A DNA stretch of 64,000 nt from an uncultured Marinicella sp. (GCA_964352015.1 CAYGPU010000002.1:46419-110418); one strand, 5' to 3'. Shown: positions 1 to 40,205, counted from the first letter of the stretch. Program-made: numbers and translations. Notes: a model not told the origin generated them from the letters alone.

Positions 1-276
1 CTGGGAAATTCAGCCGTTAATGTTCAGGTAACAGACCCTGAGTTTGTTGATCGTGATAACCGTGATTATCATTTGAATGCTGCCACCTCACCTGCGGTAG
101 ACTTCTGTGCACAGCCTTTGTTAGATGATGGTGTAAGCGATATGGACAATCAACAGCGTGGCTGGGATGATAATACCGTACAAAATTACCAAAACAATCC
201 GAACTACATTTATGATGCCGGTGCCGATGAAACATATGACAATGACGTTATTTTCAAAGATGGCTTTTCACTTTGA
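1..276 (+). CDS. 3' end of an exported-type protein (choice-of-anchor-Q-like tail) ending DVIFKDGFSL; truncated by the window edge
   Basis: Frame 1 is open from base 1 to TGA at 274-276: ...TDPEFVDRDNRDYHLNAATSPAVDFC...DAGADETYDNDVIFKDGFSL. The DPxF..D.HL..SPAxD...D.GAxE pattern is typical of choice-of-anchor Q regions. Confidence 0.7.
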   Translation: MGNSAVNVQVTDPEFVDRDNRDYHLNAATSPAVDFCAQPLLDDGVSDMDNQQRGWDDNTVQNYQNNPNYIYDAGADETYDNDVIFKDGFSL

Positions 277-397
277 AATGCTGTGGAATCATAAAATGGT
301 GCCGGGAGTGGAGCGAAGCCAATACATAAATCAGTGTTACTTAAGAGAACAGCCAGATTAAGTTATCTGGCTGTTTTTATAACAAAACTGGTGATGC

Positions 398-2419
398 TTA
401 ATTAACCACAGGAGCCTCAAAACCATTGCGGTATATTAAATCATTGCCTACTTCGCAACTGACATCAATATCAGTCACATCGGCGCTGTTTATGCTTGAA
501 GTGGCGTTGATAATCTGACAAGGCTGAATCGGGTTATTGGGTAGCAGGTCGAATTCAATATCATAGCTTTCAGTATGGACCAATGGTGTGTTGAAAACAT
601 AAGCACCATTTTCGGTGATGATCTTGTCATCCGCGCCCATATTGGTCAGAACAAAGTAATTCCCAGCTAATAGCCCATTGACAGTACCGCCAATGAAATA
701 GATGTTTTCAAAGGTGTAATTGTTGTCATTGGTGCCGACTACACTGTTGCTTGTCATTGAGTTACCTGGCAGATCAGTAATACCTGCGGTGATAAAACCA
801 AACGCAATGCTGCCATTAAATTCAACCAAATTAGCCCCGCTGAATTCAACATCATAAGTTGTTGGTGAGGTGGTGGTGGTTTGGATGTTATTGATTGCGC
901 TGGGATTGTTGCTGAAAAAATTACTGCTTTGCACGTTGTTAACGGGTTCGGTAAATGTGTACCGCAGGGTTACACTATCCGCAGATGTCGGGCTGGTAGC
1001 GGGGTTCAATCGAGTAACAGATTGCAGTAATGGAGCAACAGCATCCACCAGAACATTGGCAGTACTGCCTATTGCATTTAAATTTATGTTGGCATCAAGT
1101 CCACCATTGCTGGTGATTGTTCCACCATTAAGGCTGAGCGAATTGATGGCTATACCATCGCTGTCAAAATCACCAGATTGAATTGCATAGTTGAAGGTTA
1201 AAACACCACTGCCGGAGCCGTTTTGATATGCTGCCAATACATTCACAGAACCGATGGTGACTGAAAGAGCTGGGTCTCCATTGACAGTGACATCCTTACT
1301 GAACTGAACTGAGAAATTGAGGTTTTCATTGAGTATGTATGTGTCTGAGGCTGGTACATTAACCATGCTTACAACAGCAGGTACAGCTGTGATATTTAAA
1401 GTGGCCAGATAATTTCCATTGCTGTTTTCTACACCATCATTGACTTCAAAGCTGAATGAAGTATTGGTAGTGCCATTTTGGATGTATTGTAAATTACCGG
1501 CATCTAGGTTTGCTTTTGAAACCATGTCACCATTGTTGAGTTGTTCGCCGGCATTGAAGGTATCGCTGTTGTTAGCGTCCACATACAGTGTGCCTGCCAG
1601 GGTTGTTGATGAGACCAAAACGTGGTTAATTGGATCGGCATCGCCATCGTTGTATGAAAAATCTGCGGTTGAAAATATGTATGTTTGTCCTTCGGTCGGG
1701 TTGGCGGTAAAGCTTGTGGCCGTTGGCGGGACATTCGGTGTGCCAACACTTCGGATGCGAATGGCATTGAGGGTGGTATAGGTGCCTGCCGATAAAGTAG
1801 TTAATGTGATAGATCCATTGCTGGGTGTTACTGCATCCCAAGTCAACCAGTTGTTCAGACCATCAGTTGCGGTGTTCCAATCATCTCCTAAGGCGGTGGT
1901 GCCCAGTCTGTTGCTGTCAGCAAATTGTCCTGCGACTTTGAAGTCCGCAACACTTGGAAACAGTGTTTCAACAGCGACCAGGTCAATTGCATAGGTACTG
2001 CCATTACTCAAGCCATTGAATGTCACAGAACCATTGGTGACACTGTAAATACCATCATTGGCGGCGCCAACATTGAGCCAGTCAACATTGCCCGCTGTCC
2101 ACCCGCCTGAATTGTTACTGTCCACTCCACCCAGCGCATGGCTGAGTGTGGCAGCGCCAGTCACTCCAGTGTCATCATCAATCAGAGCAACATTGGTGTT
2201 TTGGTTGCTTTGGAGTGAGTTCCAGTTACCACCTGGGTTTTCAAATTGGCTGAAATCAATCAGATAAGTTTCACTGAATGCTGAGTGCGAAAGCATAAGC
2301 AGTAAAATTGTCATTACCAAGTTTGATAGGCACCGCTTGATAAAGGTGTGTGTTGTTTGAATCTGATTGAATTTGTTAGACTGAGATAGTGCAGTCGTTA
2401 ATGACATGCTGTTTTTCAC
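398..2419 (-). CDS. Modular secreted/surface protein (unknown N-terminal beta domain, cadherin/Ig-like domains, Y-x-IGGTV-x-GL domain, DLIYRNGFE tail)
   Basis: 673-aa ORF with a GTG start preceded by AGGGGA. Signal-like segment ...ILLLMLSHSAFS. Rich in Asn/Thr/Gly/Ser beta strands. Contains NVPPTA...ADFSYNDGD and V.VP..DTY...L.F.VQFS Ig-like modules. Confidence 0.8.
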   Translation of the reverse strand: MKNSMSLTTALSQSNKFNQIQTTHTFIKRCLSNLVMTILLLMLSHSAFSETYLIDFSQFENPGGNWNSLQSNQNTNVALIDDDTGVTGAATLSHALGGVDSNNSGGWTAGNVDWLNVGAANDGIYSVTNGSVTFNGLSNGSTYAIDLVAVETLFPSVADFKVAGQFADSNRLGTTALGDDWNTATDGLNNWLTWDAVTPSNGSITLTTLSAGTYTTLNAIRIRSVGTPNVPPTATSFTANPTEGQTYIFSTADFSYNDGDADPINHVLVSSTTLAGTLYVDANNSDTFNAGEQLNNGDMVSKANLDAGNLQYIQNGTTNTSFSFEVNDGVENSNGNYLATLNITAVPAVVSMVNVPASDTYILNENLNFSVQFSKDVTVNGDPALSVTIGSVNVLAAYQNGSGSGVLTFNYAIQSGDFDSDGIAINSLSLNGGTITSNGGLDANINLNAIGSTANVLVDAVAPLLQSVTRLNPATSPTSADSVTLRYTFTEPVNNVQSSNFFSNNPSAINNIQTTTTSPTTYDVEFSGANLVEFNGSIAFGFITAGITDLPGNSMTSNSVVGTNDNNYTFENIYFIGGTVNGLLAGNYFVLTNMGADDKIITENGAYVFNTPLVHTESYDIEFDLLPNNPIQPCQIINATSSINSADVTDIDVSCEVGNDLIYRNGFEAPVVN

Positions 2420-2997: not shown

Positions 2998-3384
2998 TCA
3001 GGCTGGATAAGCATCAAGCCGGTTAATTTTGAATGAAATGCTTTCGCCCACAAGACGCTGGTCATTTGATGTGATCGGTGCTTCCAGAATGGCTATGCCA
3101 ACATCAACCGTAACATCGGGCGTAATACTGGTGATTATGCCATTGGCTTGATATTCCCAGCCTTTTATGTGGTTCAATGATTTGGTTCTATCCGGGTTGC
3201 CTGAAAACATGGTTTCCCAACTTTCTTCTTCTGAATACACGCCTACAGACAATTCAATTTCAATTTGCTGCTGTTTCTTTAACAGTTCTCCATAAAAGTG
3301 ATCCATAACAAAATATTGATTATTGTTAATTTCAATTGTTGCAATTAAGTAATCGCCTTTGGTTTCTTTGAATATTGCTATCAT
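2998..3384 (-). CDS. Hypothetical protein (small orphan, OB/beta-barrel-like)
   Basis: 128 aa; start overlaps the upstream stop (ATGA at 3381-3384); motif WETMFSGNP...GWEYQANG. Confidence 0.7.
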   Translation of the reverse strand: MIAIFKETKGDYLIATIEINNNQYFVMDHFYGELLKKQQQIEIELSVGVYSEEESWETMFSGNPDRTKSLNHIKGWEYQANGIITSITPDVTVDVGIAILEAPITSNDQRLVGESISFKINRLDAYPA

Positions 3385-3692
3385 TTTTCTTTTATGCCAC
3401 TTAAGAATCGAACAAAGTGTTTCAAGCCGATGGAAATACTATAAAAAATTAAGAATATGACAAATAAGCCCAGCAGAATACAGAAAACTGCTGATACATA
3501 GCTCATCCAATCATATGGAAAAGAAACCAATAATATTTTATAAAGTTTCCATGTCCAGCCAAAGCCAAATATCGGCAACGCAAATAATGCACTGAGCAAC
3601 ATGCCGATAAAAACGATTAATGATTGAAATCGATCTTTTGATGATAGCCTCTTGGCTTTTATGGCTTCCAGTTTGGCTTGATATTCATTCAT
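3381..3692 (-). CDS. Hypothetical two-TM membrane protein
   Basis: 103 aa with two hydrophobic segments; translationally coupled to the next ORF. Confidence 0.65.
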   Translation of the reverse strand: MNEYQAKLEAIKAKRLSSKDRFQSLIVFIGMLLSALFALPIFGFGWTWKLYKILLVSFPYDWMSYVSAVFCILLGLFVIFLIFYSISIGLKHFVRFLSGIKEK

Positions 3693-3713
3693 GTGCTATT
3701 CAAAAAATATTTA

Positions 3714-4016
3714 TTAGGTGGCAGTTGTGTGATCGAGTAGTACACCATCAATATCTAGTTGGTTAATGCATTTAAATATTATATCCTCGCTCAACTCTGA
3801 AACAACAATCATGTTGTTGCCATAATGAAGACGAACCTTAGTGCCATTGACGTAATCACCAAATTTATTAATCATATCCGGAGTAAGAAAGAAACAAAAC
3901 CTTTTTGAGCCATCATCGAATGTTATGTCAACTTCAACCGCATGGTCAGATTGATCAACGGAATCAATTATTTTTACATTTGAGCGGTTGAATTTATTTG
4001 ATTGCATTCTTGTCAA
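3714..4016 (-). CDS. Hypothetical protein (immunity-protein-like size and composition)
   Basis: 100 aa; overlaps the upstream ORF by 23 nt; motif EVDITFDDGSKRFCFFLTP...IVVSELSEDII. Confidence 0.6.
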   Translation of the reverse strand: MTRMQSNKFNRSNVKIIDSVDQSDHAVEVDITFDDGSKRFCFFLTPDMINKFGDYVNGTKVRLHYGNNMIVVSELSEDIIFKCINQLDIDGVLLDHTTAT

Positions 4017-4422
4017 GCTCCCATCGAGATGTATATTTGAAAATCAATTTAGATGAGTTACCTGATTGAACTGTCAAATCATTAACTAAGTTCACCACAT
4101 CTGGATCATCCCCGGCGCATGACCTATAAATCATTCTGATCATTCTATCTGCAATGGGTGAGATTTCAGATCGTCCATGTTCCCAATTTCTTATGGTGCT
4201 TTCGCTTATTCCAAGCACGGCTGCAAAAGTTGCCTGAGTGGCTTGAATATCGTTTCTGAGGTACTTAAATTCTTTGGGTGATAGTTTAGATCTCAGAGAA
4301 ATCATGTGACTGGCAATGGTGTAGTGCAAATTGTTAGGTTGGTCAACACTGATGCTGTCATCAATTTGATAGCCATTGGATAGCCAGATATTATCAAGTC
4401 CGCTTTCTGTGTAATGGTGCAT
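3994..4422 (-). CDS. XRE-family HTH protein, antitoxin-like (MqsA/HigA-type)
   Basis: N-terminus HYTESGLDNIWLSNGY plus HTH KYLRNDIQATQATFAAVLGISESTIRNWEHG. Confidence 0.8.
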   Translation of the reverse strand: MHHYTESGLDNIWLSNGYQIDDSISVDQPNNLHYTIASHMISLRSKLSPKEFKYLRNDIQATQATFAAVLGISESTIRNWEHGRSEISPIADRMIRMIYRSCAGDDPDVVNLVNDLTVQSGNSSKLIFKYTSRWELDKNAIK

Positions 4423-4432
4423 AGACTCTATC

Positions 4433-4729
4433 CTAAGAAATATCGGTTTCTTTCCTCATGAACACAAGGTGTTTCAAATGTTTCATTTTGTGTTCGGTGT
4501 TAACGAGAAACTCTTCTTTAATATTGTAATCTGGGAAATCGGAAATAATTTCAGTACCGGCTATTGATAAGGATTCCCAGTGTTTATCTTTGGATTGCTG
4601 AGAATCAAATATGCTTCTGACAAATATCATATTTTCTTTGGCTTCAACTGAAACTGCTCTTAATCCAACTGGCACTGCGTCCAATAAAGCCCTTTGTGCT
4701 GACAACCTTAAACTTGTATCTATATTCAT
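4433..4729 (-). CDS. Hypothetical protein (immunity-protein-like)
   Basis: 98 aa; SAQRALLDAVPVGLRAVSV...TEIISDF pattern; 10-nt gap to the HTH gene. Confidence 0.65.
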   Translation of the reverse strand: MNIDTSLRLSAQRALLDAVPVGLRAVSVEAKENMIFVRSIFDSQQSKDKHWESLSIAGTEIISDFPDYNIKEEFLVNTEHKMKHLKHLVFMRKETDIS

Positions 4730-4899
4730 AATTCAATTATAGCTTACACCGTCAGAAATTAACGGCGCAAAACCATGCTTTTTAGGTGTTTGAATTGTTA
4801 TGAAACCTGATGATACCATTTGCCTGAAAGTGTTTTAGTGTGGATATAAGAATATTCCTAAGCAACCGAATCGGTTTGATTTTAAGTCTGGTTTTAACT

Positions 4900-4909
4900 C
4901 CCCCCCCCC
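4900..4909. repeat. C10/G10 homopolymer
   Basis: Ten consecutive C residues in otherwise AT-rich intergenic DNA. Confidence 0.9.
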
Positions 4910-5045
4910 ATACAGTTCTGTTAACGTCACAATGCCAGATTCATTGATACCCATTGTTGCTTGACCATTACCAATCAGGTATTGGCTTATTTGTGTTATT
5001 AATTTTTGATACTATACTCTTAACCAAATTACTGAGTTAATTTAT

Positions 5046-5831
5046 ATGCCGTTTGTACAGAAAGTAAAAATAATAAAAGATAAACTGGATGATATCGACG
5101 AAACAGAAGTTGCTATGTTTTTTGATGTTGGGCATATTGCTAATGAAATCAATTCATTGAACAAACTTTTTTACTGGTCAACTTATGGGGAAAATGAAAT
5201 AGAACCTCATCACCAATGTAATACAACGTACTTGTGTATGTTTATTAGGTTGCTGTCTGGTAAGTTGAATGAAGCAAACGAGTATATTAAAAAGCACATG
5301 AACAGCAAACCAGAATTGAGGCAATATATAGGTCAATTTAGTGAAAAAGCAGTTGCGGCAAAAAAAGAAATCAACAAGTATTTCAGTCGCACTAACCCAA
5401 TTAATTCTTTAAGAAACAACCAATCATTTCATTACGGTAACGATTTAATTGGAAATCATAACGAAAAACTTGATGATGAGTTCGTTTTATATTTATCTGA
5501 AGATGATGGGAACAGTCTGTATTACCATTCTGAAGTAGTTAAACTGATGAAAATGATGGAATTGATTTCTTCAGATGATGTTAAGTGGGACAAAGTTGGT
5601 TTACATAAGATATTTGATTCATTGATCAAGGACGTTACCCGTCTGACACATCTTTTTATGGTCACTCTTACAGAGATAATGATTGTTTTTACAGATAAGC
5701 ATAATGATGCTTTTATCTTTGAAAAGGATCAATTATTGGTTGATAGAAATGTAATTTCATTAAAGGAATTTAAATTACCTTGGTTTTATTATCGTGATGA
5801 AAAACCATCTAGAAGTAAAGAGCATGAATGA
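5046..5831 (+). CDS. Hypothetical all-alpha protein with a HEPN-like R-x5-H motif
   Basis: 261 aa, helical composition, LRNNQSFHY motif; island cargo. Confidence 0.65.
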   Translation: MPFVQKVKIIKDKLDDIDETEVAMFFDVGHIANEINSLNKLFYWSTYGENEIEPHHQCNTTYLCMFIRLLSGKLNEANEYIKKHMNSKPELRQYIGQFSEKAVAAKKEINKYFSRTNPINSLRNNQSFHYGNDLIGNHNEKLDDEFVLYLSEDDGNSLYYHSEVVKLMKMMELISSDDVKWDKVGLHKIFDSLIKDVTRLTHLFMVTLTEIMIVFTDKHNDAFIFEKDQLLVDRNVISLKEFKLPWFYYRDEKPSRSKEHE

Positions 5832-6085
5832 TACTAAAATTAGTAAATAATTTCTGGAATTGAGCCGTACGTTTTTTTGGTTACAATTTTTTTTTGAAGT
5901 GGCGGCGCAAATTAATATTATTCAATCTGCAACCGCCACCAGTGTTACTTTTATATTTACGGTTATCTGCCCAACTAATCTGGGACACACACCTCAATCT
6001 ACAAATTCTTACATGCTCATCAGAGATTTGCCACAGATATTTCTAAGCCATTTGCTCAAAATAATGTTTTTACATGGAGTTTTGT

Positions 6086-7021
6086 ATGACTTTAGCCAGA
6101 AACCAACAGATTTGTGTCGAGGAAACACCGTATTACCACATTGTATCTAGATGTGTTCGACGCGCCTTTCTCTGCGGTAAGGATAAAGTATCAGGAAAGA
6201 GTTTCGAGCATCGCCGTGGGTGGCTCATAGATCGCATCAAACAAGTCACTTCTGTATTCGCTATTGATGTATGCTCTTATGCCATCATGTCGAACCATTT
6301 CCATATTGTCCTGCGAGTTAATTCAACAAAGGAATGGAACGCCACCCAGGTACTGATGACTTGGTGTTCATTGTATTCACTTCCAGTGCTGTGTGATCGT
6401 TATCTAAAAGGTGAAATTGAGACCGAAGCTGAACTCAGGCGGGTGAAAGAATATGTCGCTGAATACAAAACCAGGCTGATGTCTGTTTCTTGGTACATGA
6501 AGGCGATTAATGAATACATTGCTCGGATGGCCAATGAAGAGGACAAATGTTCTGGGCACTTCTGGGAGTCCAGGTTCAAGAGTCAAGCCTTGCTTGACGA
6601 AAGGGCATTATTGACCTGCATGGCTTACGTTGATTTGAACCCTATTAGAGCTGCTATGGCAAGAGACTTGAAAGGATCTGATTTCACTTCAATCAAAGAG
6701 CGTATTGAAAACAATTCGACTTGGCTTTCTGGCTTTGGTAAAGACGATAATGACCTGCCCTTTTATCTGTCTAACTACATCAATCTAGTTGATGAAACAG
6801 GCCGTTGTTTACGTGGCGATAAAAGAGGTTTTATTTCTGAAAAAACAGCCAAAACCATTGATGAAATTGGTATCAATCCTGATGATTGGTTAGATGAGCT
6901 CAAAGGCTTTAAATCTATCGGGTTTTCGGCTGTAGGAACCGCTGAACAACTCAAAGAATATTCAAAGAAAACAAAACGCAAATGGACCCTAGGAATTAAG
7001 CTCAAACCCGCTCTGGAATAG
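6086..7021 (+). CDS. HUH/Y1 transposase (IS200-like / REP-associated tyrosine transposase type)
   Basis: YYHIVSRCVRRAFLCG, YAIMSNHFHIVL (HUH), HFWESRFKSQAL and YVDLNPIRA motifs. ATG at 6086 follows GGAG; the ORF track starts at 6074. Confidence 0.9.
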   Translation: MTLARNQQICVEETPYYHIVSRCVRRAFLCGKDKVSGKSFEHRRGWLIDRIKQVTSVFAIDVCSYAIMSNHFHIVLRVNSTKEWNATQVLMTWCSLYSLPVLCDRYLKGEIETEAELRRVKEYVAEYKTRLMSVSWYMKAINEYIARMANEEDKCSGHFWESRFKSQALLDERALLTCMAYVDLNPIRAAMARDLKGSDFTSIKERIENNSTWLSGFGKDDNDLPFYLSNYINLVDETGRCLRGDKRGFISEKTAKTIDEIGINPDDWLDELKGFKSIGFSAVGTAEQLKEYSKKTKRKWTLGIKLKPALE

Positions 7022-7712
7022 CCTAAAACCGCTAAAAAATCCATTAGCAGATTATGTCTGCAATCGTTCAACTCGAATTGAATCTGTCAAATCCACTTCA
7101 AAACCAATCTCACCTCTGACCTAATCACCTATCTAGTGAATTAGTAGCTCAAATCAGTTATTTTTTAATCAGAAACATCACTTAAAAGTTAGTTTGTGGA
7201 TTCTATGTAATGCATGTCCTAGATTAGTTATAATGACCTGCCCTTTTATCTGTCTAACTACATCAATCTAGTTGATGAAACAGGCCGTTGTTTACGTGGC
7301 GATAAAAGAGGTTTTATTTCTGAAAAAACAGCCAAAACCATTGATGAAATTGGTATCAATCCTGATGATTGGTTAGATGAGCTCAAAGGCTTTAAATCTA
7401 TCGGGTTTTCGGCTGTAGGAACCGCTGAACAACTCAAAGAATATTCAAAGAAAACAAAACGCAAATGGACCCTAGGAATTAAGCTCAAACCCGCTCTGGA
7501 ATAGCCTAAAACCGCTAAAAAATCCATTAGCAGATTATGTCTGCAATCGTTCAACTCGAATTGAATCTGTCAAATCCACTTCAAAACCAATCTCACCTCT
7601 GACCTAATCACCTATCTAGTGAATTAGTAGCTCAAATCAGTTATTTTTTAATCAGAAACATCACTTAAAAGTTAGTTTGTGGATTCTATGTAATGCATGT
7701 CCTAGATTAGTT
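6747..7712. repeat. 483-bp direct tandem duplication (6747-7229 and 7230-7712)
   Basis: Both copies run from ataatgacctgccc to cctagattagtt and appear identical by eye; the duplicated shadow ORFs are offset by exactly 483. Confidence 0.95.
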
Positions 7713-8280
7713 CCTTATTTTTAAGTACCTTTGCTGCAGCAAGTAAACGTTCTCTTTCGCTGTCATTTAAATATCTGATACGGCCTTTGGGTTCAGTGGG
7801 TCTGCTTACCTTGATCATTGGTGATTTATCTAGCCATTCCCATTCATTTACTGCAATTTTGTAAACAGGCGAGAGAGCAGCCATGTACCGAACTACTGTT
7901 GATGTTGAACGTTGTTTTCCATTCTTCATTTTCTCGGTAAGTAACAACTCTTTCACTTCAGATATTTTTTTAGCGGTTACATCAAATAACCTGAAGTCAC
8001 CCAGTTCATTTTTCCATCTGTTAAGCTGCATTTTTTGTTTGGCATAACTTTTGGGCTTGTTGTGCAATTCGGTTTGAATGTATCGGTCAATCATATCGGC
8101 AAATGTATGACGTTTTGATTCAGCTTCTTTCAGGTGCTTACCGTCTCTTATTTCTGATTCACGCTTAGCAGCCCAAACTTTCGCATCTGTTTTTCGATTA
8201 AATGTAGCTGATTCGGTGGGATGTCCTTTGAGGCGGATCTTAACCTGGTATGTGTTACCTCTTTTGATTATGGTAGCCAT
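7702..8280 (-). pseudogene. Tyrosine recombinase/integrase, C-terminally truncated
   Basis: N-terminal arm domain MATIIKRG...SATF.RKTDAKVWA and a core-binding domain, ending RIRYLNDSERERLL...KE. Sequence switches to the duplicated block at ~7712, before any catalytic R-H-R-H-Y residues. Confidence 0.85.
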
Positions 8281-8281
8281 C

Positions 8282-8599
8282 TCAGTCTATCTTCAAGTGT
8301 GATTTGATTAAATCGTGGATGCGTTCAAAGCCCTGCAAGCTGCCAGTGGTTTGACGAACTTCGAAAGTGTCACCATCGGTCATTAGTTCGGCTTCACACT
8401 CATGGGCCTTAATTGGAACCCATGCACAGACTTCAAGACCAAAACCATTTTTCCATCCTGTGTTTTTAACGGTGATTGAACTATGACTGTCTAAATGACT
8501 TAGTACATCTATAGCAACATCCATGGCATATTCGCCTGGTGTGCAGATGTTTAGATACTTTAAGTGCGGACTGCCTGTGAGTTGTATGTTTGCTGACAT
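8282..8599 (-). CDS. Hypothetical protein directly upstream of the integrase
   Basis: 105 aa; its stop is 1 nt from the integrase ATG (TGA-G-ATG). Confidence 0.55.
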   Translation of the reverse strand: MSANIQLTGSPHLKYLNICTPGEYAMDVAIDVLSHLDSHSSITVKNTGWKNGFGLEVCAWVPIKAHECEAELMTDGDTFEVRQTTGSLQGFERIHDLIKSHLKID

Positions 8600-8715
8600 T
8601 CTTAATGATTCTATTCAGTAATGGAATTAATTATATAGTACAACTAATGGTAACAAGTGGTAATAAGGGATAAAAAATCCCTTTTATAATTACGTATATA
8701 GTTATTTAAGGGTAA

Positions 8716-8838
8716 TTTGGGACAATAGAGGGACGTTGGTATTGTAAAAGGCAGCATTTTGTCTTTTTTTAAGAGGTTTTCACTTGTTACCAAGAATGGT
8801 TGGTATTTATGGGTTATTGTCCCAAAACTGTACCCAAA
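8716..8838. other. Putative integrase arm-binding sites
   Basis: 12-bp inverted pair tttgggacaata (8716-8727) / tattgtcccaaa (8815-8826), plus the adjacent direct variant tgtacccaaa, ~80-190 bp from the att core. Confidence 0.4.
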
Positions 8839-8903
8839 GGTGAAAGTGGTCAGTTTTTGAGTTTGGGTCGTGGAGTAGGTGTTGCCGCCTTAAGTTGTTG
8901 ATT

Positions 8904-8933
8904 TGGAACCAAAGAATGGTGCCCGGGAATGGA
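8904..8933. repeat. Proximal att site overlapping the tRNA-Leu 3' end
   Basis: Partner of 2866-2894; covers the last 17 nt of the tRNA and 13 nt downstream. Confidence 0.85.
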
Positions 8934-9003
8934 ATCGAACCATCACGGTATTTCTACCGGGGGATTTTAAGTCCCCTGCGTCTACCAATTTCGCCACCCG
9001 GGC
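8917..9003 (-). tRNA. tRNA-Leu(TAA)
   Basis: GCCCGGG acceptor stem, anticodon loop CTTAAAA, long variable arm, GGTTCGATTCC T-arm, encoded CCA. Confidence 0.97.
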
Positions 9004-9258
9004 TTTTTTGCTGGCTCATGCTTCGTGAGTTCAGCAATCTCTGCGTCGAAACTTCCTTAAGCACATGCGTGCATGCAGAAGTTGTCTCCTTGATCTTGCT
9101 AACCTCACTGTGCATGAGCCTAGCAAAAAACTTTCCTTTTGATGATTGCTTATTGAAAGCATCATATCCTGCGTCGAAACTTCCTTAAGCACATGCGTGC
9201 ATGCAGAAGTTGTCTCCTTGTCTCTGCTAATCTCAAAAAACCCTGAGCTTAGCAAAAA
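9004..9258. repeat. Composite repeat: two identical 52-bp cores (9041-9092, 9169-9220) with three related hairpins (9004-9037 inverted, 9096-9130, 9225-9258)
   Basis: Core ctgcgtcgaaacttccttaagcacatgcgtgcatgcagaagttgtctccttg occurs twice; hairpin consensus ttgct-a-x-ctca...tgag-x-tagcaaaaa. Confidence 0.85.
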
Positions 9259-9388
9259 TTCCTTTGGCTGTTTTCAATTGAATCTTGAGATTCTGTTGAA
9301 AACGGCTTTGTATTTTAGTTTAAAAATATGTGCTGTAAAAGGTTTTAATTCTTTTAGTTCACATGTTAATTAAACGCCATTTAAAACA

Positions 9389-21019: not shown

Positions 21020-23074
21020 TTAAAAGCCATCTGCGAAAATAATATCGCTGCATTCAGCGATTTGTTCAGCTGAAACTATAACGTGGAAACGGGCCAATTC
21101 CTCCATGGCTTCGCCACCTTGATTAAATACCCCCCATTGCCCCCTGGCTTGGTTGTAATACACACCAGTTTTATATGGGTAGACAATGCCACTGTCATAA
21201 GTGACTTGGAATTGAGCACATGGCGAGTTATTTAACAATGGGTGATCAATCAAGGAGGAATCTATCAAGATATTGGCATCGCTGGTTCTATGTATAAAAG
21301 CATTGGCACTGCTTGCTTGATAATAAACGTTGAATTTAGACATCCATGGCATGTCGATGAAATTAGAGTTGTATATGTTCCATCGGCCTGTAAAAGGATT
21401 ATAAAATACACCCACAGGGTTGTCATTGTAAAGCCCTTCCCAGAGTTGAGTGACTGATAATATTGCGTTGGGGTTGTCGTTCAGGCCGCTGCGGTCTAAT
21501 TCGGTGAAGCTTTCAGAGGCTGAAATCGCATCCTCAGCCGTGTGGACATAATTTTGGCTGCTGGGGGCTGGATTCCACACATTAAATGCGGCATTTGTGT
21601 CCATTTGAGTGAGCTGGTCCTGGTTGAAAATTATCCATGTTGGGTCATTTCTATAAATCCCTGGGTTGGCATCATTGTATACGCCGTTAAAAACATCTTT
21701 TCCATTAGGATTTAAATTTTGCGTGATTTGTATTTTGGCAAACTCTTCAGCGTTGATGGCAGTATTTTCTATGGCGTTGAGGGTATTCGGATTACCTTTT
21801 AAAAAGTCTAATGTGCGCATATCACCGGCTTCATAGGCACCAATGTCTATAGCAACACCACCTGAACCCGGGTTGCCATTTTTTATTCTGACTAAGCCAT
21901 CGGCATCAATCAGAGGAACACTGGCTACTGCAAATAGTGCCAAACCATTACCTGCTTCAATGGCCGGTGAGCCAGGATTTAATCGAGCATTGGTTAAACT
22001 TTTAATCTTCGGATTATCAGCGATAAAGTTAGGCCCAGTGATGTAATCAGGGTCACTTAATTCATTGTTAAAAAACAAGTTGTTGTCGTTAACGATATTG
22101 ATGGTGCTGTCAGATAAGCTGTAAAAATTTAGGATAACTGGAGCACCACTTAAAGCCACAATATTATTGTACAGCTGAACGTCAAGTTCGCCAGAGCCTG
22201 TTTCTTGAAAATTAAACCCATCAAAGGCATTGATTATGGTGTTATTAATGGCATTTATTGCAAGTTGTCCAGCAGCAACTTCAGCCATGAAACCTCGGTA
22301 ATCATCGTCTATTTGATTGCTGTAAGTGGCATTGTGGGCAAAATCAATCCTGCTGCTGCCAGTCGATTCGGTGCTTTTATTAATGTACACGCCTGCAGTC
22401 CCGCCACCAATCAATGTATTGCTTGATATATCCAGATCTAAGCTACTTTCAGATATCCCATAAAGCCCAATACCAACAGATGCACTGCCTATAGATTTAA
22501 TCTGATTGTTATAGATTCTGCCTGTTATTTTGGATGTAGATGGGCTGTTAAAATTTCCACCATTATTGATTGAGATACCTCCATTGCCACTGCCGATATA
22601 ATTGATTTGATTGTAAGCTATGTTGAGTTCTAATTGATTTTCGCCCCCCAAGTTGTTGACTCTAAGTGAGCTAGATGGCAGAGAATTCTCAATAATGTGG
22701 TTGTTGATTATGTTTAGTTTTGTGCTTTCACCAGGAGAATTGCGAGCTATATAAGAGATTCTTCCACTGCTGAGTGTTAACCCTGAAATGGTGACCTCTA
22801 AATCGCCCTGTGAAGTACCAGAAATATCAATCACATTTCCTGCGGAGAACACGGGTTTAAAACCAGTGCCAGCGACAAGTGATATGCCGTTGCCGGTAGT
22901 CAATGATTCATTTATCGGTCCATTGGTTCGTATTTCAATCACCTCACCTGACGAAATGGCCTCAGCACAGGCCGTCAATGTGGTGTTACACGGGGCACTT
23001 GTGTCGGGCCAAATAACCACCGCCGCGCTGAAATCAGCGTAAACAGTAAGGGCAAATATAATTATATATTTCAT
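21020..23074 (-). CDS. Secreted parallel beta-helix protein with choice-of-anchor-Q-like region, three tandem ~80-aa C-terminal repeats and DIIFADGF tail
   Basis: Signal-like N-terminus, Asn-ladder beta-helix repeats, SPAIEAG...DADG...DIGAYE, and repeated H...IDHP.LNN.P.A...VT...GV.Y...W.IFNQ units. Confidence 0.85.
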   Translation of the reverse strand: MKYIIIFALTVYADFSAAVVIWPDTSAPCNTTLTACAEAISSGEVIEIRTNGPINESLTTGNGISLVAGTGFKPVFSAGNVIDISGTSQGDLEVTISGLTLSSGRISYIARNSPGESTKLNIINNHIIENSLPSSSLRVNNLGGENQLELNIAYNQINYIGSGNGGISINNGGNFNSPSTSKITGRIYNNQIKSIGSASVGIGLYGISESSLDLDISSNTLIGGGTAGVYINKSTESTGSSRIDFAHNATYSNQIDDDYRGFMAEVAAGQLAINAINNTIINAFDGFNFQETGSGELDVQLYNNIVALSGAPVILNFYSLSDSTINIVNDNNLFFNNELSDPDYITGPNFIADNPKIKSLTNARLNPGSPAIEAGNGLALFAVASVPLIDADGLVRIKNGNPGSGGVAIDIGAYEAGDMRTLDFLKGNPNTLNAIENTAINAEEFAKIQITQNLNPNGKDVFNGVYNDANPGIYRNDPTWIIFNQDQLTQMDTNAAFNVWNPAPSSQNYVHTAEDAISASESFTELDRSGLNDNPNAILSVTQLWEGLYNDNPVGVFYNPFTGRWNIYNSNFIDMPWMSKFNVYYQASSANAFIHRTSDANILIDSSLIDHPLLNNSPCAQFQVTYDSGIVYPYKTGVYYNQARGQWGVFNQGGEAMEELARFHVIVSAEQIAECSDIIFADGF

Positions 23075-23791: not shown

Positions 23792-25596
23792 TCATTCAAA
23801 ATCATCAGCAAAAATCAAGTCGCCGCTGCACTCCTCTATTTGTTCAGCTGACACGATGACGTGAAATTCAGCATTATTGGCCATGTCTTCAGTATTTTGA
23901 TTGAATATGCCCCATTTGCTATTCAAGCCTTCATAGTAAACCCCAAGTGGGTGTGTATTGATGGTCAAGCCTACATGGGTTACTTGAAATTGTGCGCACG
24001 GTGTATTGTTAAGTAACGGGTGATCTATGTAGGTGATTGAAGCAAGCGTATTGGCAGTAACTGCTTTGTGTACAAATGCATTGGCGCTGGCTGTTTGATG
24101 ATACACATTGAATTTCGCATTCAGCGGCATGGCAGTTAAATTACTGTTGTTGATGCGCCATTTGTTTTGGAAAAGGTCGTAAAAAGCACCGACTGGGCTG
24201 TCATTGTAGACGCTACCTGCGCTTGAATCCCAAAGTTGAGTGACAGATAAGATGGCATCAGGCTTGTTATTCAATCGACTGGCGTCAACTTCTGTTGAGC
24301 TTTCAGATACATTGTTGGCGGTGTGTACAAATGTAAAGTTAGAAGGGGCTGGGCTCCAAACATTGAATGCGGTTCCCGGCGTCATCTGAACAAAATCCTG
24401 ATTAAATATGCTCCAGGTTGTTGAGGGGTTAAATACACCGAAATTTGAGTTGTTGTAGGTACCCGAACCGCCGTTATTGGGGTTCCAGTTATGCATAACC
24501 TGCAGGTTGGGGTTGGCTTGATTGTTGATGTTTTGATTTTCAATACTGTTTACGTGTGTATTGGTGTTTTGGAATGTATCTAATATACGTATGTCACCAG
24601 TTTCATAAGCGCCGATGTCTACTGAAGCACTGCTGGCCAACATATCTCCTTTTTTAACTCTCAGTAAACCATCCGCATCGATTTCAGGACACCAGAACCG
24701 CTTTCCTGAAAACTGAAGCCATCGTAAGCGCCGATAACGGTGTTATTGATTGCATTGATTTCAAGTTCTCCTGATGATACTTCCGTTACCAAGCCGCTGT
24801 AGTCGCTATCAATTTGATTGCTGTACATGGCATTGTGAGCAAAGTCAAAATCACTGCTGCCAGTTGAGCCTGCTATTTTTTCTATGTACACAGCAGCAGA
24901 CTCACCGCCAGTAATTACATTGCTAGATACATCTAAATTTGAAGTGTTGGCAGAAAATTCATAAATCCCTATACCTACAGATCCCGCTCCATCTACATCG
25001 ATTTGATTGTTATAAATTCGTCCGGTCATATGACCCGAACCAGGAATAAGGGGGTTGTCAGTTCCATTTAAGATAGCAATAGCTCCAGGCTTTTGGATGT
25101 CATTTGGAACTAACTCGAAAGTGTGTTGAATTCGGTTGAATGCAATGTTGAGGTTTACATCACGACCATATGTATTGACGACAAATAGTGAAGAGTCATT
25201 GGCAGTGCTTACTGTCATGTAATTGTTGGTGATGTTGAGGGTGGTACTGGAGCTGGTGTCAGTAGAGCCCCTGTATGATATGTATGCACCAGTAAAATCC
25301 ATGCCTGAAACAGTAATGACTACATCAGTTGTGGATGAATCATTAACCAACAAAGCTGAGGAGTTGGTGAATAATGGTTTGTATCCTGTGCCTGCTACCA
25401 GTGATTTAGCATCAGGTAAAACGATCACATCCTCGATGGCATCATTTGAACGTATTTCAATAGTCTCACCTGTTGGGCTGTCACTGATGCAAGCTTGTAA
25501 AGTGGTGTTACAAGGGGCGACTGTGTTGGGCCAAATAACCACCGCCGCGCAGAAATCAGCGTAAACAGTAAGGGCAAATATAATTATATATTTCAT
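23792..25596 (-). pseudogene. Paralogue of 21020-23074 split into ORFs 24661-25596 and 23792-24643 by a frameshifting internal deletion
   Basis: After GSG the sequence jumps to PEIDADGLLRVKKG...DIGAYE in another frame; about 90 codons present in the intact paralogue are missing at ~24690. The C-terminal ORF ends DLIFADDFE. Confidence 0.8.
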
Positions 25597-36323: not shown

Positions 36324-37622
36324 TCATTCAAAGCCATCAATAAAAATGATGTCAGAATAATTCCCATCTGTAATTTGGATCACTGTTGAGGAAGTTACGA
36401 AATATAAATTACCTTGTTCGTCTTCGCCAAATGATCTGACGTTTCCTGGCGCATTAAACAGCACCTCTAAGTCACTCCAAGTGCCAGCATTATTAACACT
36501 CCAGAAAACTTCACCCGTGCAAAAGTCGCCATACAGGTAAGTACCCTGCCAGGTGTCTTCAGGACCTCGATACGGGAACCCCCCAATGACAGAACATCGA
36601 CCTGAGCTGACATAATCGATGATCGGATCAACTGCGTTGACAACGGTACAACTTTGGCCAGGGGTTTGGATGAAGCCTTCCCGGCAAACCCAACCGTAAT
36701 TTTCACCACCTGTTGAAGTGGCTGGTTGATAATCAACTTCTTCGCGTGCGTTTTGGCCCACATCGCCGATGAATAAATCTCCTGTGTCGCGATCAAAACC
36801 CCATCGGTAAGGGTTTCTTAGGCCCCACGCCCATATTTCGCCACAATCATTGTTGGCGTTGCTGAACGGGTTGCTGGCAGGGATGCCATAGTTAACCCCT
36901 TCTCCACAGGCGTCGCTGACATTAACTCCAGGGTTGTCCACATCTATACGAATCATCGACCCCAGCAGCGCCCTGGAATCATCATTGCCATCAAAGGCAG
37001 CATCAGCAGTACAAGAAACGGTATTTACGATGTCATCTGGGTCTTTGGTTTGACCGCGATTACAAGGATCATCACCACTGCCGCCGTCACCCATGCCAAT
37101 ATACAAGTAGCCATCAGCGGGGCCGAAGTGTAAATCACCGCCATTGTGGTTACTGAAGTCTTGATCAATACTGATGATTTTAAGGCTTGAGTTTTGATCA
37201 GCCACATTGGCATCACCAGTGCTGACAGAATACCTGGCAATGATGGTATCACCCGATGTATCGGTGTAGTTGATGTAAAAGAAACCATTGTTTGCATAAT
37301 TGGGATGAAAAGCCAATCCCAATAAACCTTGTTCACTGCCGTTACTAACTAAGGAGGAAACATTTAAAAAAGGCGTTTCCAAAGTGGCACCGTTTTCGAT
37401 GATTTTTACTCTTCCGCTTTGTTCAACTACAAACAGTCGGTCGCTGCCATCGCCTGCGTTTCTCACTGCGACTGCACCTGAAAAACCGCTCTCAATGGTG
37501 GTTAATACTGGGTCGAGAGGCGCAAGGGTGCCTGCGTGAGAGAATGTTGCAACTGCAAACATTGATAAAGCCATGGTTAATGGGCGGGTGTAAGATTTAA
37601 ATATGTAATTTTTTAAAATCAT
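36324..37622 (-). CDS. PQQ-dependent sugar dehydrogenase (GSDH family beta-propeller), secreted, DIIFIDGFE tail
   Basis: RLFVVEQSG, EQGLLGLAFHP, NHNGG.L.FGP.DGYLYIGMGDGG, GLRNPYR and DVGQNAREEVD motifs; signal peptide. Confidence 0.92.
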   Translation of the reverse strand: MILKNYIFKSYTRPLTMALSMFAVATFSHAGTLAPLDPVLTTIESGFSGAVAVRNAGDGSDRLFVVEQSGRVKIIENGATLETPFLNVSSLVSNGSEQGLLGLAFHPNYANNGFFYINYTDTSGDTIIARYSVSTGDANVADQNSSLKIISIDQDFSNHNGGDLHFGPADGYLYIGMGDGGSGDDPCNRGQTKDPDDIVNTVSCTADAAFDGNDDSRALLGSMIRIDVDNPGVNVSDACGEGVNYGIPASNPFSNANNDCGEIWAWGLRNPYRWGFDRDTGDLFIGDVGQNAREEVDYQPATSTGGENYGWVCREGFIQTPGQSCTVVNAVDPIIDYVSSGRCSVIGGFPYRGPEDTWQGTYLYGDFCTGEVFWSVNNAGTWSDLEVLFNAPGNVRSFGEDEQGNLYFVTSSTVIQITDGNYSDIIFIDGFE

Positions 37623-38087: not shown

Positions 38088-38300
38088 AAAATTACTCAAT
38101 TTAAGAAGCAGACAAATATACAACAATCTTGACTCGATTTCGCTGAAATATTGCTTATCCGGTCACAAAAGTAGTTATTTTTTGATGAATTAATGTTTGT
38201 TATAACAAACTTTTAACACCATAAATTAAAAAAACAGTAAAATGCAAAGCAGAAAACCACAAAAAGAAAAAACGTAACTCAATCAATAGGTAACAAAGTA

Positions 38301-40205
38301 ATGATAAAAAACAAAATTGTTTCGACACGATTGCTGCTGTCAATCGGCTTTATGATGTCGGTACAACTTTCTCATGCTGTGAAGTTGTCGATAGATAATT
38401 CAACTCCAATCAATTTATCTGCTGACGTTAATTATGTCATTGCAGATCAAGTCATAGAATTCAGTTCTGCTGACCCTGTCATTTGTCGAAAGCTCAATGC
38501 CACTGTTGGCGCTTTGAATGCTGAGATCATTGATCCAAATGGTGACGGTCTAGTTATGCCGTTATTACAAAACGTCAGGTACAACGTGCCTTCGCAAACA
38601 ACCAAAGCCAATATTAACAATCCCAGTGGTGTTTGTGTAACTAAAAATAACAGCACATTTAATGACATCATATTCAACAATGCTTTTGAACTCGAAGTGC
38701 CGACATTCACTTACCAGGGTTTAAGTGATTTGGTTGTCAGAGGGCAATCCTTGGACTACCAAATCAGCATTGAAAACCCCAATAACCAGGCGCTGATGTT
38801 TGATTTGGTCGAGTATGTCTCAACCAATTCAATTACAAACAGCGCTTACTTCGAAAGTCTAGATCTGTGGCAATGTCTCAGTCACAATGTGGCGGGTGTA
38901 GATTGTAACGAAGACAATGCCGATAATCGCTTGTTGAATGCTTCAATTCCGGCTGGTCAAACGGCGCTGATTGATGTGTCAAGAACGGTTGGCTCATCAT
39001 CTGTATTGGGTCAATCAATTGAAATTTTGACAGCCATGTTCATTAAAAATGGTCAGGGTGAGATTATTGGTACTGAAGTCATCAGTCATCAGCCGACTGT
39101 GGTTAACAACAATGCACCAGTTTTGGTGTGGGCTAACAGCGCTGATATTGATTTTATAGAAGATGAAAATCAGCCGCATACTTTGAGTTTTGATGTCTTA
39201 GACAGTACCGGAGTTGATGTAAGCCCTGGTTACTTAGCAACTGCCATTGGAGCAGTGAATGATAAGTTAGATATAGATGGCATCAATGTGGTTGAAAATG
39301 ACCCAGGCGAATATACGGTGTTTTTTGATGTCACGCCAAAAGCCAATCAATTCACTTCTGCAGGTAATACTGAGACAATATTCGTGCAGATTGAAGATGA
39401 ATTCAATGCGTCTTCTAATTTATTGATGCTGGCAGTGAATATAGAGCCCATCAATGATGCACCAAGTTTTACGCCCACTTGTCTTGATTTCACCATCAAC
39501 CCAACACCCGTGGGTGGTGAAACTGAAATCACTTGTAATGTCAGCAATGGTGTCAGTAGGGCCACTTGGAATTACTCAGATTTTATTGCTGAAATTTCAG
39601 CCGGTGGCCTGAATAATGACACTGAAGACAATCAAAGTGTTATTTTTGAAGTAAATCCACTTTCAGGCCTTGCTCTTCAGGGTCCCATAACTATTGGTAA
39701 TGATCCAGGTACATTTATTCAAAATGATTTGGAGTTGATACTGGCTGATGGTGCCAGTGGTTCAGGAAGTTTTGAAATCCGTGCAATAGATAATGGTACG
39801 CCTGTAGGTGAAACCGATGTGTGTCCAGCTTTGACTTTCAGTGACCATTGCAACACATCAGCATACAGCCAAGAAATTGTGTTCAATCTTTTGGCGCCAG
39901 TTTATTTTGTCAGTGGTACCATTGATGATTTACCCGATGGTGATGAGCTGGGTGTTCGTTTATTTGAAGCGGGTACCAATAACCCATTGGGTGGGAATTT
40001 GTTGGTTGCAGGTTCAGGTATAAGTGGTGGTCAGGCGATTGATTTTTCATTCCCCCAAGCACTGAGCAATGGTGTGAATTATGATGTTCAAATCACCATT
40101 TCTCCGCTCAACAGAACCTGTACAATTACCGATGGAGCAACAGGCACCATCAACGACATGAACGTCAACGATTTGGTGATTGACTGTGAGCCCAATCCCA
40201 ATTAA
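38301..40205 (+). CDS. Secreted multidomain (cadherin/Ig-like) protein with an internal DIIFNNAFE motif
   Basis: Signal peptide; NNAPV and PINDAPSF cadherin-like linkers; C-terminal Y-x-VSGT domain like that of 398-2419. Confidence 0.82.
   Translation: MIKNKIVSTRLLLSIGFMMSVQLSHAVKLSIDNSTPINLSADVNYVIADQVIEFSSADPVICRKLNATVGALNAEIIDPNGDGLVMPLLQNVRYNVPSQTTKANINNPSGVCVTKNNSTFNDIIFNNAFELEVPTFTYQGLSDLVVRGQSLDYQISIENPNNQALMFDLVEYVSTNSITNSAYFESLDLWQCLSHNVAGVDCNEDNADNRLLNASIPAGQTALIDVSRTVGSSSVLGQSIEILTAMFIKNGQGEIIGTEVISHQPTVVNNNAPVLVWANSADIDFIEDENQPHTLSFDVLDSTGVDVSPGYLATAIGAVNDKLDIDGINVVENDPGEYTVFFDVTPKANQFTSAGNTETIFVQIEDEFNASSNLLMLAVNIEPINDAPSFTPTCLDFTINPTPVGGETEITCNVSNGVSRATWNYSDFIAEISAGGLNNDTEDNQSVIFEVNPLSGLALQGPITIGNDPGTFIQNDLELILADGASGSGSFEIRAIDNGTPVGETDVCPALTFSDHCNTSAYSQEIVFNLLAPVYFVSGTIDDLPDGDELGVRLFEAGTNNPLGGNLLVAGSGISGGQAIDFSFPQALSNGVNYDVQITISPLNRTCTITDGATGTINDMNVNDLVIDCEPNPN

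Follow-up and report, generated by a model that had tools for sequence, protein, structure and literature searches.

Why do exported proteins of otherwise unrelated build, encoded within a single 64,000-nucleotide stretch of DNA from an uncultured Marinicella sp. (the whole of which is called the window here), end in nearly the same few residues? The original prediction described five such tails on exported proteins of four architectures, and proposed a sorting or anchoring signal, with type II secretion (T2SS) as one possible route. We show that a nine-residue peptide, D-x-I-F-x-D-G-F-E, ends many exported proteins in this Marinicella-like bacterium and its relatives, and we consider what such an ending may be for.

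Results

All five tails were found at the predicted coordinates and on the predicted strands, and signal peptides are present in 5/5 tail-carrying window proteins, in agreement with the signal-like starts noted earlier. The first tail, DVIFKDGF (244-267, plus strand), is followed by SL and a stop codon and closes an ORF at the left end of the window (1..276, plus strand), which is the 3' end of a 643-aa GGGI-type repeat-rich protein; the complete form, signal peptide included, was recovered on another contig (L203). No NCBIfam model scored above threshold for this protein, in which a choice-of-anchor-Q-like stretch, resembling by eye the motif of the 684-aa protein described below, comes right before the tail. 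On the minus strand, DLIYRNGFE (416-442), followed by APVVN and a stop codon, ends a 669/673-aa exported Cadherin_3-like protein (398..2419), and DIIFADGF (21023-21046) ends an exported 684-aa beta-helix protein (21020..23074), which carries choice-of-anchor Q and DUF7452, has a fold similar to pectate lyase and terminates in AEQIAEC-S-DIIFADGF directly before the stop codon. DLIFADDFE (23795-23821, minus strand), also directly before a stop codon, belongs to ORF 23792-24643, and here the earlier reading is corrected: the 684-aa gene has a tandem paralogue that is split in two (23792..25596, minus strand), and this ORF is its C-terminal piece, 24661-25596 being the N-terminal one; identity is 51% across the N-terminal 305 residues. 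As the left-end protein is moreover choice-of-anchor-Q-like by eye, the four architectures hold only loosely. The gene next to the paralogue pair (25676-27109) encodes an Rce1-like membrane protease of the CPBP type. The fifth tail, DIIFIDGFE (36327-36353, minus strand), stands directly before the stop codon of a 432-aa exported PQQ-dependent glucose/sorbosone dehydrogenase (36324..37622, minus strand). A sixth copy, NDIIFNNAFE (38664-38690, plus strand), lies at about residue 122 of a 634-aa exported protein (38301..40205, plus strand), behind an N-terminal domain of ~95 aa; the C-terminus of this protein is without the tail, and its last domain shows a weak relationship to that of the Cadherin_3-like protein. 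It is because of this copy, internal rather than terminal, that the range originally reported ran to 38690.

The recurrence of the motif in the window is far above chance, which is excluded as an explanation: translated in six frames, the window matches the pattern D.[IL][FY].[DN][GDA]F 6 times, where 200 first-order Markov randomisations gave 0.02 matches on average, and near-stop copies number 5 against 0.005 in the same randomisations. Five of the six copies are terminal, 0-6 residues before a stop codon. Tagged ORFs make up 5 of the ~62 in the window, and, as predicted, the motif is missing from all ~54 ORFs for cytoplasmic or inner-membrane proteins (Fisher p = 9e-6). The DNA encoding the tails varies at synonymous positions, and the likeness is therefore at the protein level. 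The predicted lack of a transmembrane (TM) helix or basic tail was also confirmed, and neither Pfam nor NCBIfam has a model over the tail, even when isolated tails were searched at E <= 10; no PDB chain and no paper was found for it.

Retention of the tail is high in two families. Full-length DUF7452 orthologues keep it in 31/31 cases, at identities as low as 28%, and it stands at the same position in 118/120 of the closest dehydrogenase homologues (91 short, 27 long). When the dehydrogenase family is sampled by representatives at 50% identity, the C-terminal slot holds a DGFE tail, an ending like a T9SS CTD, a PEP-CTERM or a dockerin (by eye, with no model matches), or nothing. A DGFE tail is also present in an ExeM/NucH nuclease, and Shewanella-type ExeM has a GlyGly-CTERM signal at the corresponding C-terminal position. 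The carriers, Sec- or Tat-exported, comprise beta-helix proteins with choice-of-anchor Q domains (which often precede the tail), cadherin-like proteins, PQQ dehydrogenases, proteases and the nuclease, and the view of the tail as a modular add-on on unrelated exported proteins is supported.

Across 185,579 species genomes scanned, the short tail is mainly found in Lysobacterales, Marinicella and Wenzhouxiangellaceae, with some other Gammaproteobacteria, bearing out the Xanthomonadales-like concentration mentioned in the original prediction. Among the matches listed in this unbiased scan, 61 of the 75 from these gammaproteobacterial groups lie 0-9 residues from a stop codon, and in the same loci ~15 additional non-seed tails are terminal, as against ~2 chance-like internal matches. 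Among the 119 matches listed there is no motif from Vibrio or E. coli, and the single Pseudomonas match is internal and chance-like. The tail is thus mostly C-terminal, as described earlier, but rare copies directly follow a signal peptide or lie between domains, so that the motif does not need a free C-terminus; in L119 the motif occurs in tandem. The motif is followed by a variable 0-6 residues, the last being mostly E, D or another non-aromatic residue (among the short-tailed dehydrogenase homologues E is last in 31/91, with extensions in the rest), and tail relatives end in G, D, N, P, TP and similar.

Acidobacteriota have a 21-residue form, IFxDGFESGDTxAWSxxxP, and in Chloroflexota the motif is strand 1 of an unannotated domain of ~207 residues. 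This domain, found in Chloroflexota and Vicinamibacteria, starts with D.IF.DGFESGNLSAWS, ends with FFDAFESRR..YIGP, and in secreted Chloroflexota proteins usually stands last. The tag corresponds to domain profile positions 1-9 in its short form and 1-19 in its long form; long tags match positions 1-19 at an E of about 1e-5, and short and long forms swap at the same position in orthologues. With so short a motif, the case for homology of the 9-residue form to the domain depends on this positional equivalence via the long form. The tag is not an isolated invention, since it equals the first 9 residues of both the 19-21-residue Acidobacteriota tag and the Chloroflexota domain strand. No full-length domain (1-207) is encoded in the window, where the jackhmmer profile matched no ORF and the remaining ~190 residues are absent, and sequence comparison gave no relative of the domain in Pfam or the PDB. 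A Sedimenticola lipoprotein carries the domain from profile position 12 onward, with strand 1 missing, together with three SLH repeats, and its gene lies ~10 nt downstream of that for a Tat-exported DUF1501 protein ending in DEIFSDGFED. This strand-less form turned up in one lineage only among ~115 domain copies, and nowhere in ~0.5 Mb of gammaproteobacterial loci.

In AlphaFold models the bodies of the carriers fold confidently, and neither long nor short tails are packed as a strand. The 684-aa protein has a mean pLDDT of 88, but its last ten residues average 36, with values <50 at residues 679-684 and no secondary structure at 677-684; long-form tails reach a pLDDT of 53-68, and the PQQ dehydrogenase is modeled as an all-beta soluble fold. 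Low tail pLDDT would be equally expected of a functionless appendix.

A recurrent neighbor of the tagged genes, missed by the original prediction, is a pair encoding a putative ECF43-type sigma factor and a Ser/Thr kinase. As candidate associated context in the window, an ECF sigma gene (PF07638; 16951-17520, plus strand) adjoins a membrane Ser/Thr kinase gene (17498-20383, plus strand), whose product combines a kinase domain at the N-terminus, a single TM helix and a C-terminal TPR region of ~560 aa; the TPR part is presumably periplasmic, because the single TM helix stands behind the kinase domain. An ECF sigma gene adjoining a Ser/Thr kinase gene was also found in L122, L012, L010, L022, L035, L046 and L057, and the DUF7452 gene is flanked by the pair from Marinicellaceae to Tahibacter. 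The kinase is the commonest untagged family beside tagged genes in the neighborhood census (10 loci), and a more sensitive search detected ECF and/or kinase genes in 9/70 gammaproteobacterial and 5/20 Acidobacteriota-like tag loci, with none in 10 Chloroflexota loci, 19 chance-hit loci and 358 kb around in-cis domains, controls that come from other phyla. Tagged genes are often immediate same-strand neighbors of the pair (L035, L050, L063, L041, L122), and in L122 they stand on both sides of it. ECF43 members lack DAED in sigma-2.2 and have a phosphorylatable (S/Q)TTA motif there (PMC8999054, PMC13147305); at this position the sigma factors read STTA in L122, NTTA in L012 and TPTV in the window. 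The tail may be linked to these membrane kinases, the pair being a candidate reader or regulator rather than a proven part of the system.

Discussion

The modularity of the tail, its lack of a TM helix and basic end, its concentration in a few lineages, its shared slot and its unpacked state together fit a recognition tag that is read in trans. Our leading explanation, to which we would give somewhat less than an even chance, is that sorting or anchoring depends on recognition of the tail in trans as a short linear tag, and that the tail derives from a detached domain strand. The sorting or docking tag of the original prediction stands as far as a modular, exported and unpacked add-on is concerned, in a slot shared with sorting-module-like endings; its function, i.e. 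the existence of a partner, the identity of that partner and the sorting or anchoring outcome, is what we infer. Carried at the end of mature, mostly extracellular-type proteins that are exported by Sec or Tat, the tag would mark a shared post-export fate, either outer-membrane passage or retention on a surface scaffold. It would have originated as the first beta-strand of the ~207-residue domain, intact in Chloroflexota, of which the first 19-21 residues would be left in Acidobacteriota and the first 9 in Lysobacterales, Marinicellaceae and Wenzhouxiangellaceae. Physically, the free flexible tail would likely pair with its partner by edge-strand pairing (beta-augmentation).

The tail could instead be a signalling ligand, bound in its exposed state by the TPR domain of the ECF43-paired Ser/Thr kinases, much as the TPRs of PEX5 bind a C-terminal SKL signal or DegS senses the C-termini of outer-membrane proteins for sigma-E; transcription of the neighboring tagged genes would then respond to exoprotein traffic or accumulation. 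The recurrence of kinase and ECF genes beside tag loci, against their absence from the control loci, the conserved pairing with DUF7452 and the flanking tagged genes, the probable periplasmic location of the TPR region, and the STTA and NTTA motifs of L122 and L012, though not the TPTV of the window sigma factor, are consistent with this. The periplasmic TPR domain of PknS, an ECF43 kinase, has no known ligand, and Xanthomonadales account for 343 of the 1032 ECF43 members (PMC13147305). Tagged proteins, however, far outnumber kinases (in the window, 5 tagged genes to 1 kinase), paralogous kinases could not be told apart by a generic tag, the negative-control loci were drawn from other phyla, and adjacency would be just as expected if neighboring exoprotein genes were simply under the control of ECF43/kinase pairs. 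We therefore regard a ligand role as unlikely.

Quite unlikely, in our estimate, is a vestige or passive end, either left after repeated loss of the ~207-aa domain or serving without a partner as a linker or cap for folding or protease resistance. It would account for a motif that equals the first residues of a usually last domain and for tails predicted to be flexible, and no partner or machinery for the tail was found among the loci analyzed. Yet it is implausible that dozens of unrelated families were independently truncated at the same residue, retention in distant DUF7452 orthologues and nearly all dehydrogenase homologues speaks against a passive remnant, as do copies directly behind signal peptides and in tandem, and a capping role is without support because AlphaFold does not pack the tail on the body. 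That a maturation protease or a modifying enzyme recognizes or processes the motif, the tail being removed or modified after export, is improbable: the variable extension after the motif, the tandem copy in L119 and the CPBP gene beside the paralogue pair would suit it, but that gene is not kept beside orthologues of the pair and no conserved cleavage-type residue follows the motif. The least probable is a specific T2SS signal, for which the predicted link finds no support in tag loci: the carriers are Sec/Tat-exported proteins of diderm bacteria, many of them extracellular-type enzymes, but T2SS is widespread in Gammaproteobacteria and yet Vibrio and E. coli yielded no match among the 119 listed and Pseudomonas only a chance-like one, the neighborhood census showed no association with T2SS genes, and it is well established that T2SS recognizes folded substrates and no linear signal.

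More speculatively, and with little probability in our judgement, the detached strand on a large share of the exoproteome could act as a broadcast signal, captured by the TPR domain of ECF43 kinases or by an envelope-anchored domain lacking strand 1. In the former case ECF43-associated kinases would gain a long-sought ligand, and exoprotein traffic would be under sigma-E/DegS-like surveillance; in the latter, the system would be one of split-domain, donor-strand anchoring.

Like the tag read in trans that we favor, the LPXTG/sortase, PEP-CTERM/exosortase, GlyGly-CTERM/rhombosortase, MYXO-CTERM and IPTL-CTERM systems use a short C-terminal signature on signal-peptide proteins of unrelated architectures, lineage-restricted, in the same slot in homologues and often behind choice-of-anchor domains. 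Those signals comprise a hydrophobic TM helix and a basic cluster, whereas the DGFE tail has neither in the 0-6 residues after the motif and can follow a signal peptide or sit between domains. No recurrent sortase-like neighbor occurs in ~0.5 Mb of tag loci, and a sortase-, exosortase- or rhombosortase-type signal is ruled against by the missing TM helix and basic end and by the lack of a curated model match. The T9SS CTD is likewise a C-terminal add-on on diverse secreted enzymes, with similar-looking endings (by eye) in the same dehydrogenase slot, but it is a folded beta-sandwich of about 70-100 residues, in a system best known in Bacteroidota; the tail has 9 (or 21) residues, unpacked, in other lineages, and its 9-residue motif, unstructured in AlphaFold and with no Pfam match, is not a T9SS CTD. 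Type I secretion signals go without an N-terminal signal peptide and usually with RTX repeats, whereas all carriers have Sec-type signal peptides (Tat in Sedimenticola). The BAM beta-signal is a terminal aromatic residue closing a beta-barrel; the carriers here are beta-helix, PQQ dehydrogenase and cadherin-like proteins whose last residue is usually non-aromatic.

Possible likenesses are dockerin-cohesin pairs and donor-strand complementation in chaperone-usher pili, in which a terminal module or strand binds a partner or completes its fold. The tail has no Ca-binding dockerin repeats, and the acceptor candidate is from one lineage, on sequence grounds; as for a donor strand, the tag equals strand 1 of the domain, and Sedimenticola has a strand-lacking copy beside a tagged gene. 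PTS1-SKL/PEX5, Hsp70 EEVD/Hop and OMP YxF/DegS-sigma-E also use a short terminal peptide on many proteins, and the neighboring kinases similarly offer TPR domains, probably periplasmic and paired with an ECF sigma. Unlike those signals, the motif can be followed by further residues, and in place of the protease cascade of DegS-sigma-E, sensing would fall to a Hanks kinase with an ECF43 sigma factor as its target.

Results

Motif copies and carrier proteins in the window

All five C-terminal tails on which the original prediction was built were confirmed in the window sequence, namely DVIFKDGF, followed by SL and the stop codon (244-267, + strand), DLIYRNGFE, followed by APVVN and the stop codon (416-442, - strand), and, each directly at the stop and on the - strand, DIIFADGF (21023-21046), DLIFADDFE (23795-23821) and DIIFIDGFE (36327-36353). 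A six-frame scan identified a further copy, NDIIFNNAFE (38664-38690, + strand), at about residue 122 of a 634-aa ORF (38301-40205), which lies behind a small N-terminal domain and is therefore internal. Chance is ruled out as the source of these copies: 200 first-order Markov randomisations gave a mean of 0.02 where the window has six, and five of the six are no more than 6 residues from a stop, where 0.005 would be expected. Roughly one ORF in 12 carries the motif. Synonymous positions differ among the DNA segments encoding the tails, so their likeness has been selected at the protein level, and a DNA-level repeat or recombination junction as the origin of the tails was discarded on the same ground.

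The carriers differ widely in architecture. The first is a 643-aa protein with many GGGI-type repeats, cut by the left end of the window but with a clear signal peptide in a full copy from another contig; its C-terminal stretch resembles a choice-of-anchor Q domain by eye, with all models below threshold. The others are a Cadherin_3-like protein (669/673 aa; 398-2419, - strand), a 684-aa protein combining a choice-of-anchor Q domain with DUF7452, modelled as a pectate-lyase-like beta-helix (21020-23074, - strand), a split tandem paralogue of the latter (ORFs 24661-25596 and 23792-24643, - strand), and a 432-aa PQQ glucose/sorbosone dehydrogenase (36324-37622, - strand). About 100 middle residues are gone from the split paralogue (23792-25596) and its reading frame shifts, making a pseudogene or an assembly error probable. 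All five carriers have signal peptides, which were assigned by visual inspection or with a rough measure of hydrophobicity. Among approximately eight signal-peptide proteins in the window, the three lacking the motif are small, and two of these are lipoprotein-like; none of the ~54 other ORFs has it (Fisher p = 9e-6). Within the window the motif is confined to exported proteins. In the DUF7452 proteins and the last domain of the cadherin-like protein, a conserved Cys precedes the tail by 2-5 residues (21047-21061, 23822-23836 and 443-460); a disulfide closed by this residue probably marks the end of the folded domain, with the tail free beyond it.

Elsewhere in the window, a small island of short ORFs (2998-9700) adjoins genes for tRNA-Leu, tRNA-Cys and tRNA-Gly (8917-9681), and two of its ORFs resemble, by eye, a truncated integrase (7702-8280) and a transposase (6074-7021). 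It also contains a 300-nt direct repeat without mismatches (6747-7046 and 7230-7529) and a second repeat of 89 nt (9019-9107 and 9147-9235).

Distribution and conservation of the tail

The back-translated pattern DxIFxDGFE was searched in one genome per species, covering 185,579 species, and each of the at least 119 matching stretches was translated in frame. Among the matches listed, a short tail lying 0-9 residues from the stop was found in 39 of 44 from Lysobacterales (Dokdonella, Rudaea, Tahibacter, and Lysobacteraceae and Rhodanobacteraceae MAGs), 5 of 8 from Marinicella, 3 of 3 from Wenzhouxiangellaceae and 14 of 20 from other Proteobacteria, and in none of these groups did a longer conserved extension follow the terminal short form. 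A long form, IFxDGFExG(3-5 residues)W, was present in 18 of the 20 listed matches from Acidobacteriota-like genomes and 14 of the 15 from Chloroflexota; nine of the listed Acidobacteriota-like proteins end exactly 12 residues past the E (…ESGDTSAWSxxxP, then stop). Listed matches in the remaining lineages were scattered and chance-like. Among the sampled genomes of Lysobacterales and Acidobacteriota the tag is widespread, and non-seed copies at the same loci comprised ~15 further C-terminal tails versus ~2 chance-like internal matches. In a Marinicella locus (L119), the ORF ending at the seed match has its tail duplicated in tandem (DLIFKNGFESDIIFKDGFE, or ...LPDLIFKNGFESDIIFKDGFE, up to the stop). 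The motif is not strictly C-terminal, given the internal copy in the window and rare copies directly behind signal peptides, as in locus L121 (MKVLLLLLLLCGSFAANS-IFVSDFEAS) and in L043 and L118.

Conservation within families was high. The 684-aa protein had 31 full-length orthologues, including that of Tahibacter harae, and every one ends in …C-x-D-[ILV]-I-F-x-[DN]-[GDS]-F-[ED], down to 28% identity. For the dehydrogenase, the 120 closest homologues, picked up through the propeller and not through the tail, carried the short form in 91 cases, the long form in 27 and neither in 2, with the consensus D-[LIV]-I-F-x-[DN]-G-F-E followed by 0-5 residues. Since the two forms interchange at one position in orthologues, we treat the short form as a truncated long form.

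A C-terminal slot and a related domain

Neither full proteins nor isolated short and long tails gave a Pfam or NCBIfam match over the tail, no PDB chain matched either form, and no account of it was met in the literature searched (DGFE strings, choice-of-anchor, IPTL-CTERM and Xanthomonadales C-terminal motifs). Across 149 representatives of the dehydrogenase family (50% identity clusters), the C-terminal slot is occupied by DGFE tails, by other endings or by nothing; the other endings, classified by eye, resemble T9SS C-terminal domains, PEP-CTERM or TM-plus-basic tails, and dockerin repeats. An extracellular nuclease of the ExeM/NucH family in Tahibacter (locus L122, 3203-6193) terminates in DILFQDGFEE at the position where Shewanella-type ExeM has a GlyGly-CTERM signal. 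Very often the tail is preceded by a choice-of-anchor Q domain, and the choice-of-anchor family owes its name to the fact that the anchors behind it differ from lineage to lineage. That the tail and other C-terminal modules replace one another in position is what chiefly argues for sorting or anchoring as its role. The L121 genome, which encodes tagged proteins, also has a 1066-aa protein (12328-15528) with an IPTL-CTERM-like end (PTLSWLGYLLLTCAVAGMVLRRPRKLRSQ, by eye), indicating that sorting signals with a helix apparently coexist with the DGFE tail.

Nor is the motif without relatives. In Chloroflexota and Vicinamibacteria, D.IF.DGFESGNLSAWS opens a ~207-residue domain ending in …FFDAFESRR..YIGP, usually located behind Pro/Thr linkers as the final domain of secreted proteins (loci L097, L053, L054, L014, L020, L081, L079 and L125-L202), and the long tails of Acidobacteriota match its jackhmmer profile at positions 1-19 only. 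The domain has neither a Pfam model nor a PDB relative detectable by profile search of PDB sequences, where this profile and that of the long tag gave chance matches only (ArtA 'PPDVIFRDGF', SWD1, pediocin). A metagenome scan yielded ~115 copies, nearly all with strand 1 in cis, the exception being Sedimenticola, and apart from Sedimenticola jackhmmer did not find the domain in the window or in gammaproteobacterial loci. Two Sedimenticola genomes have an operon (L101, 4296-6885; L029, 4494-7086; the same as L123 and L124) that encodes a DUF1501 protein exported by Tat and terminating in DEIFSDGFED; ~10 nt downstream of its gene starts that of a lipoprotein (…SVLAC/STAAWS…; L101, 5623-6885) with a domain matching profile positions 12-207, followed by three SLH repeats. 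As the match begins at position 12, exactly the DGFE strand is missing. A homology search with this strand-less domain returned zero matches and did not recover the query itself. From these sequences, the pair is compatible with a tag that would complete an anchored acceptor, in one lineage only.

Our preferred reading, with a little less than even confidence, is that a terminal tag, derived from the detached first strand of the 207-residue domain, would be read in trans and give exported proteins a shared destination past the inner membrane. The AlphaFold2 model of the 684-aa protein (31 orthologues) has a confident body (mean pLDDT 88), and its tail, past a helix at 669-676, has no secondary structure, with residues 679-684 below pLDDT 50 and a last block averaging 36. 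In a model of a long-form dehydrogenase (115 sequences), most blocks of the body exceed 90 and the tail, without strands, lies at 53-68. Strongly conserved yet unpacked on its own protein, the tail has the properties that a motif read in trans would have.

Alternative readings

Another candidate role comes from the gene neighbourhood. In gammaproteobacterial tag loci, no untagged family recurs as often as a membrane Ser/Thr kinase whose kinase domain is followed by one TM helix and by ~550 residues that contain TPR repeats; the single helix after the kinase domain would place the TPR part in the periplasm. Its usual partner is a PF07638 ECF sigma factor of putative ECF43 type, a type marked by an STTA-like sigma-2.2 motif (PMC8999054); the sigma factors of L122 and L012 read STTA and NTTA at this place, that of the window TPTV. 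Kinase or sigma genes of this kind were found in 9 of 70 gammaproteobacterial and 5 of 20 Acidobacteriota-like tag loci (loci with such genes include L010, L012, L022, L032, L035, L041, L050, L063 and L085, and L045, L046, L057, L084 and L118), and in none of the Chloroflexota loci, the chance-hit loci or 358 kb around in-cis domains, these controls being from other phyla. Tagged genes of several families are often immediate neighbours of the pair, which in the window (16951-20383) adjoins the 684-aa gene, an arrangement alike in Tahibacter (L122, 6349-9809). One third of the known ECF43 members come from Xanthomonadales, and what binds the periplasmic TPR domain of PknS, the ECF43 kinase of Xanthomonas citri, is not known (PMC13147305). 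The recurrent placement of tagged genes by these pairs suggests a candidate ligand for a signalling family lacking a known input (PMC13147305). We consider it unlikely that the DGFE tail serves as the ligand of the TPR domains.

That the tail is a vestige or a passive end appears decidedly unlikely. A structural-cap role was rejected, the predicted tail being left free on two different folds.

A processing site is a highly improbable function for the tail. Divergent from the paralogue pair, the window encodes a polytopic membrane protein of 477 aa (25676-27109, + strand) whose C-terminal domain is an Rce1-like CPBP protease; as a general processing partner it was dismissed, since the L121 and L122 orthologues lack it as a neighbour. 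The proposal of a short beta-strand tag is partly borne out. Its suggested link to type II secretion found no support, and a specific type II secretion signal is very improbable.

Discussion

Terminal sorting tags are a bacterial means of addressing proteins past the inner membrane. If the DGFE tail is read in trans, it would allow the surface and secreted proteome of the carrier lineages, many of which are uncultured, to be predicted at once, and the link between tag and domain, together with the strand-less Sedimenticola copy, represents a possible case of a domain split into tag and acceptor. To our knowledge, all known terminal sorting tags include a membrane helix or are a whole domain, whereas the DGFE tag consists of nine residues with no helix, and a tag of this kind would point to an undescribed recognition system.
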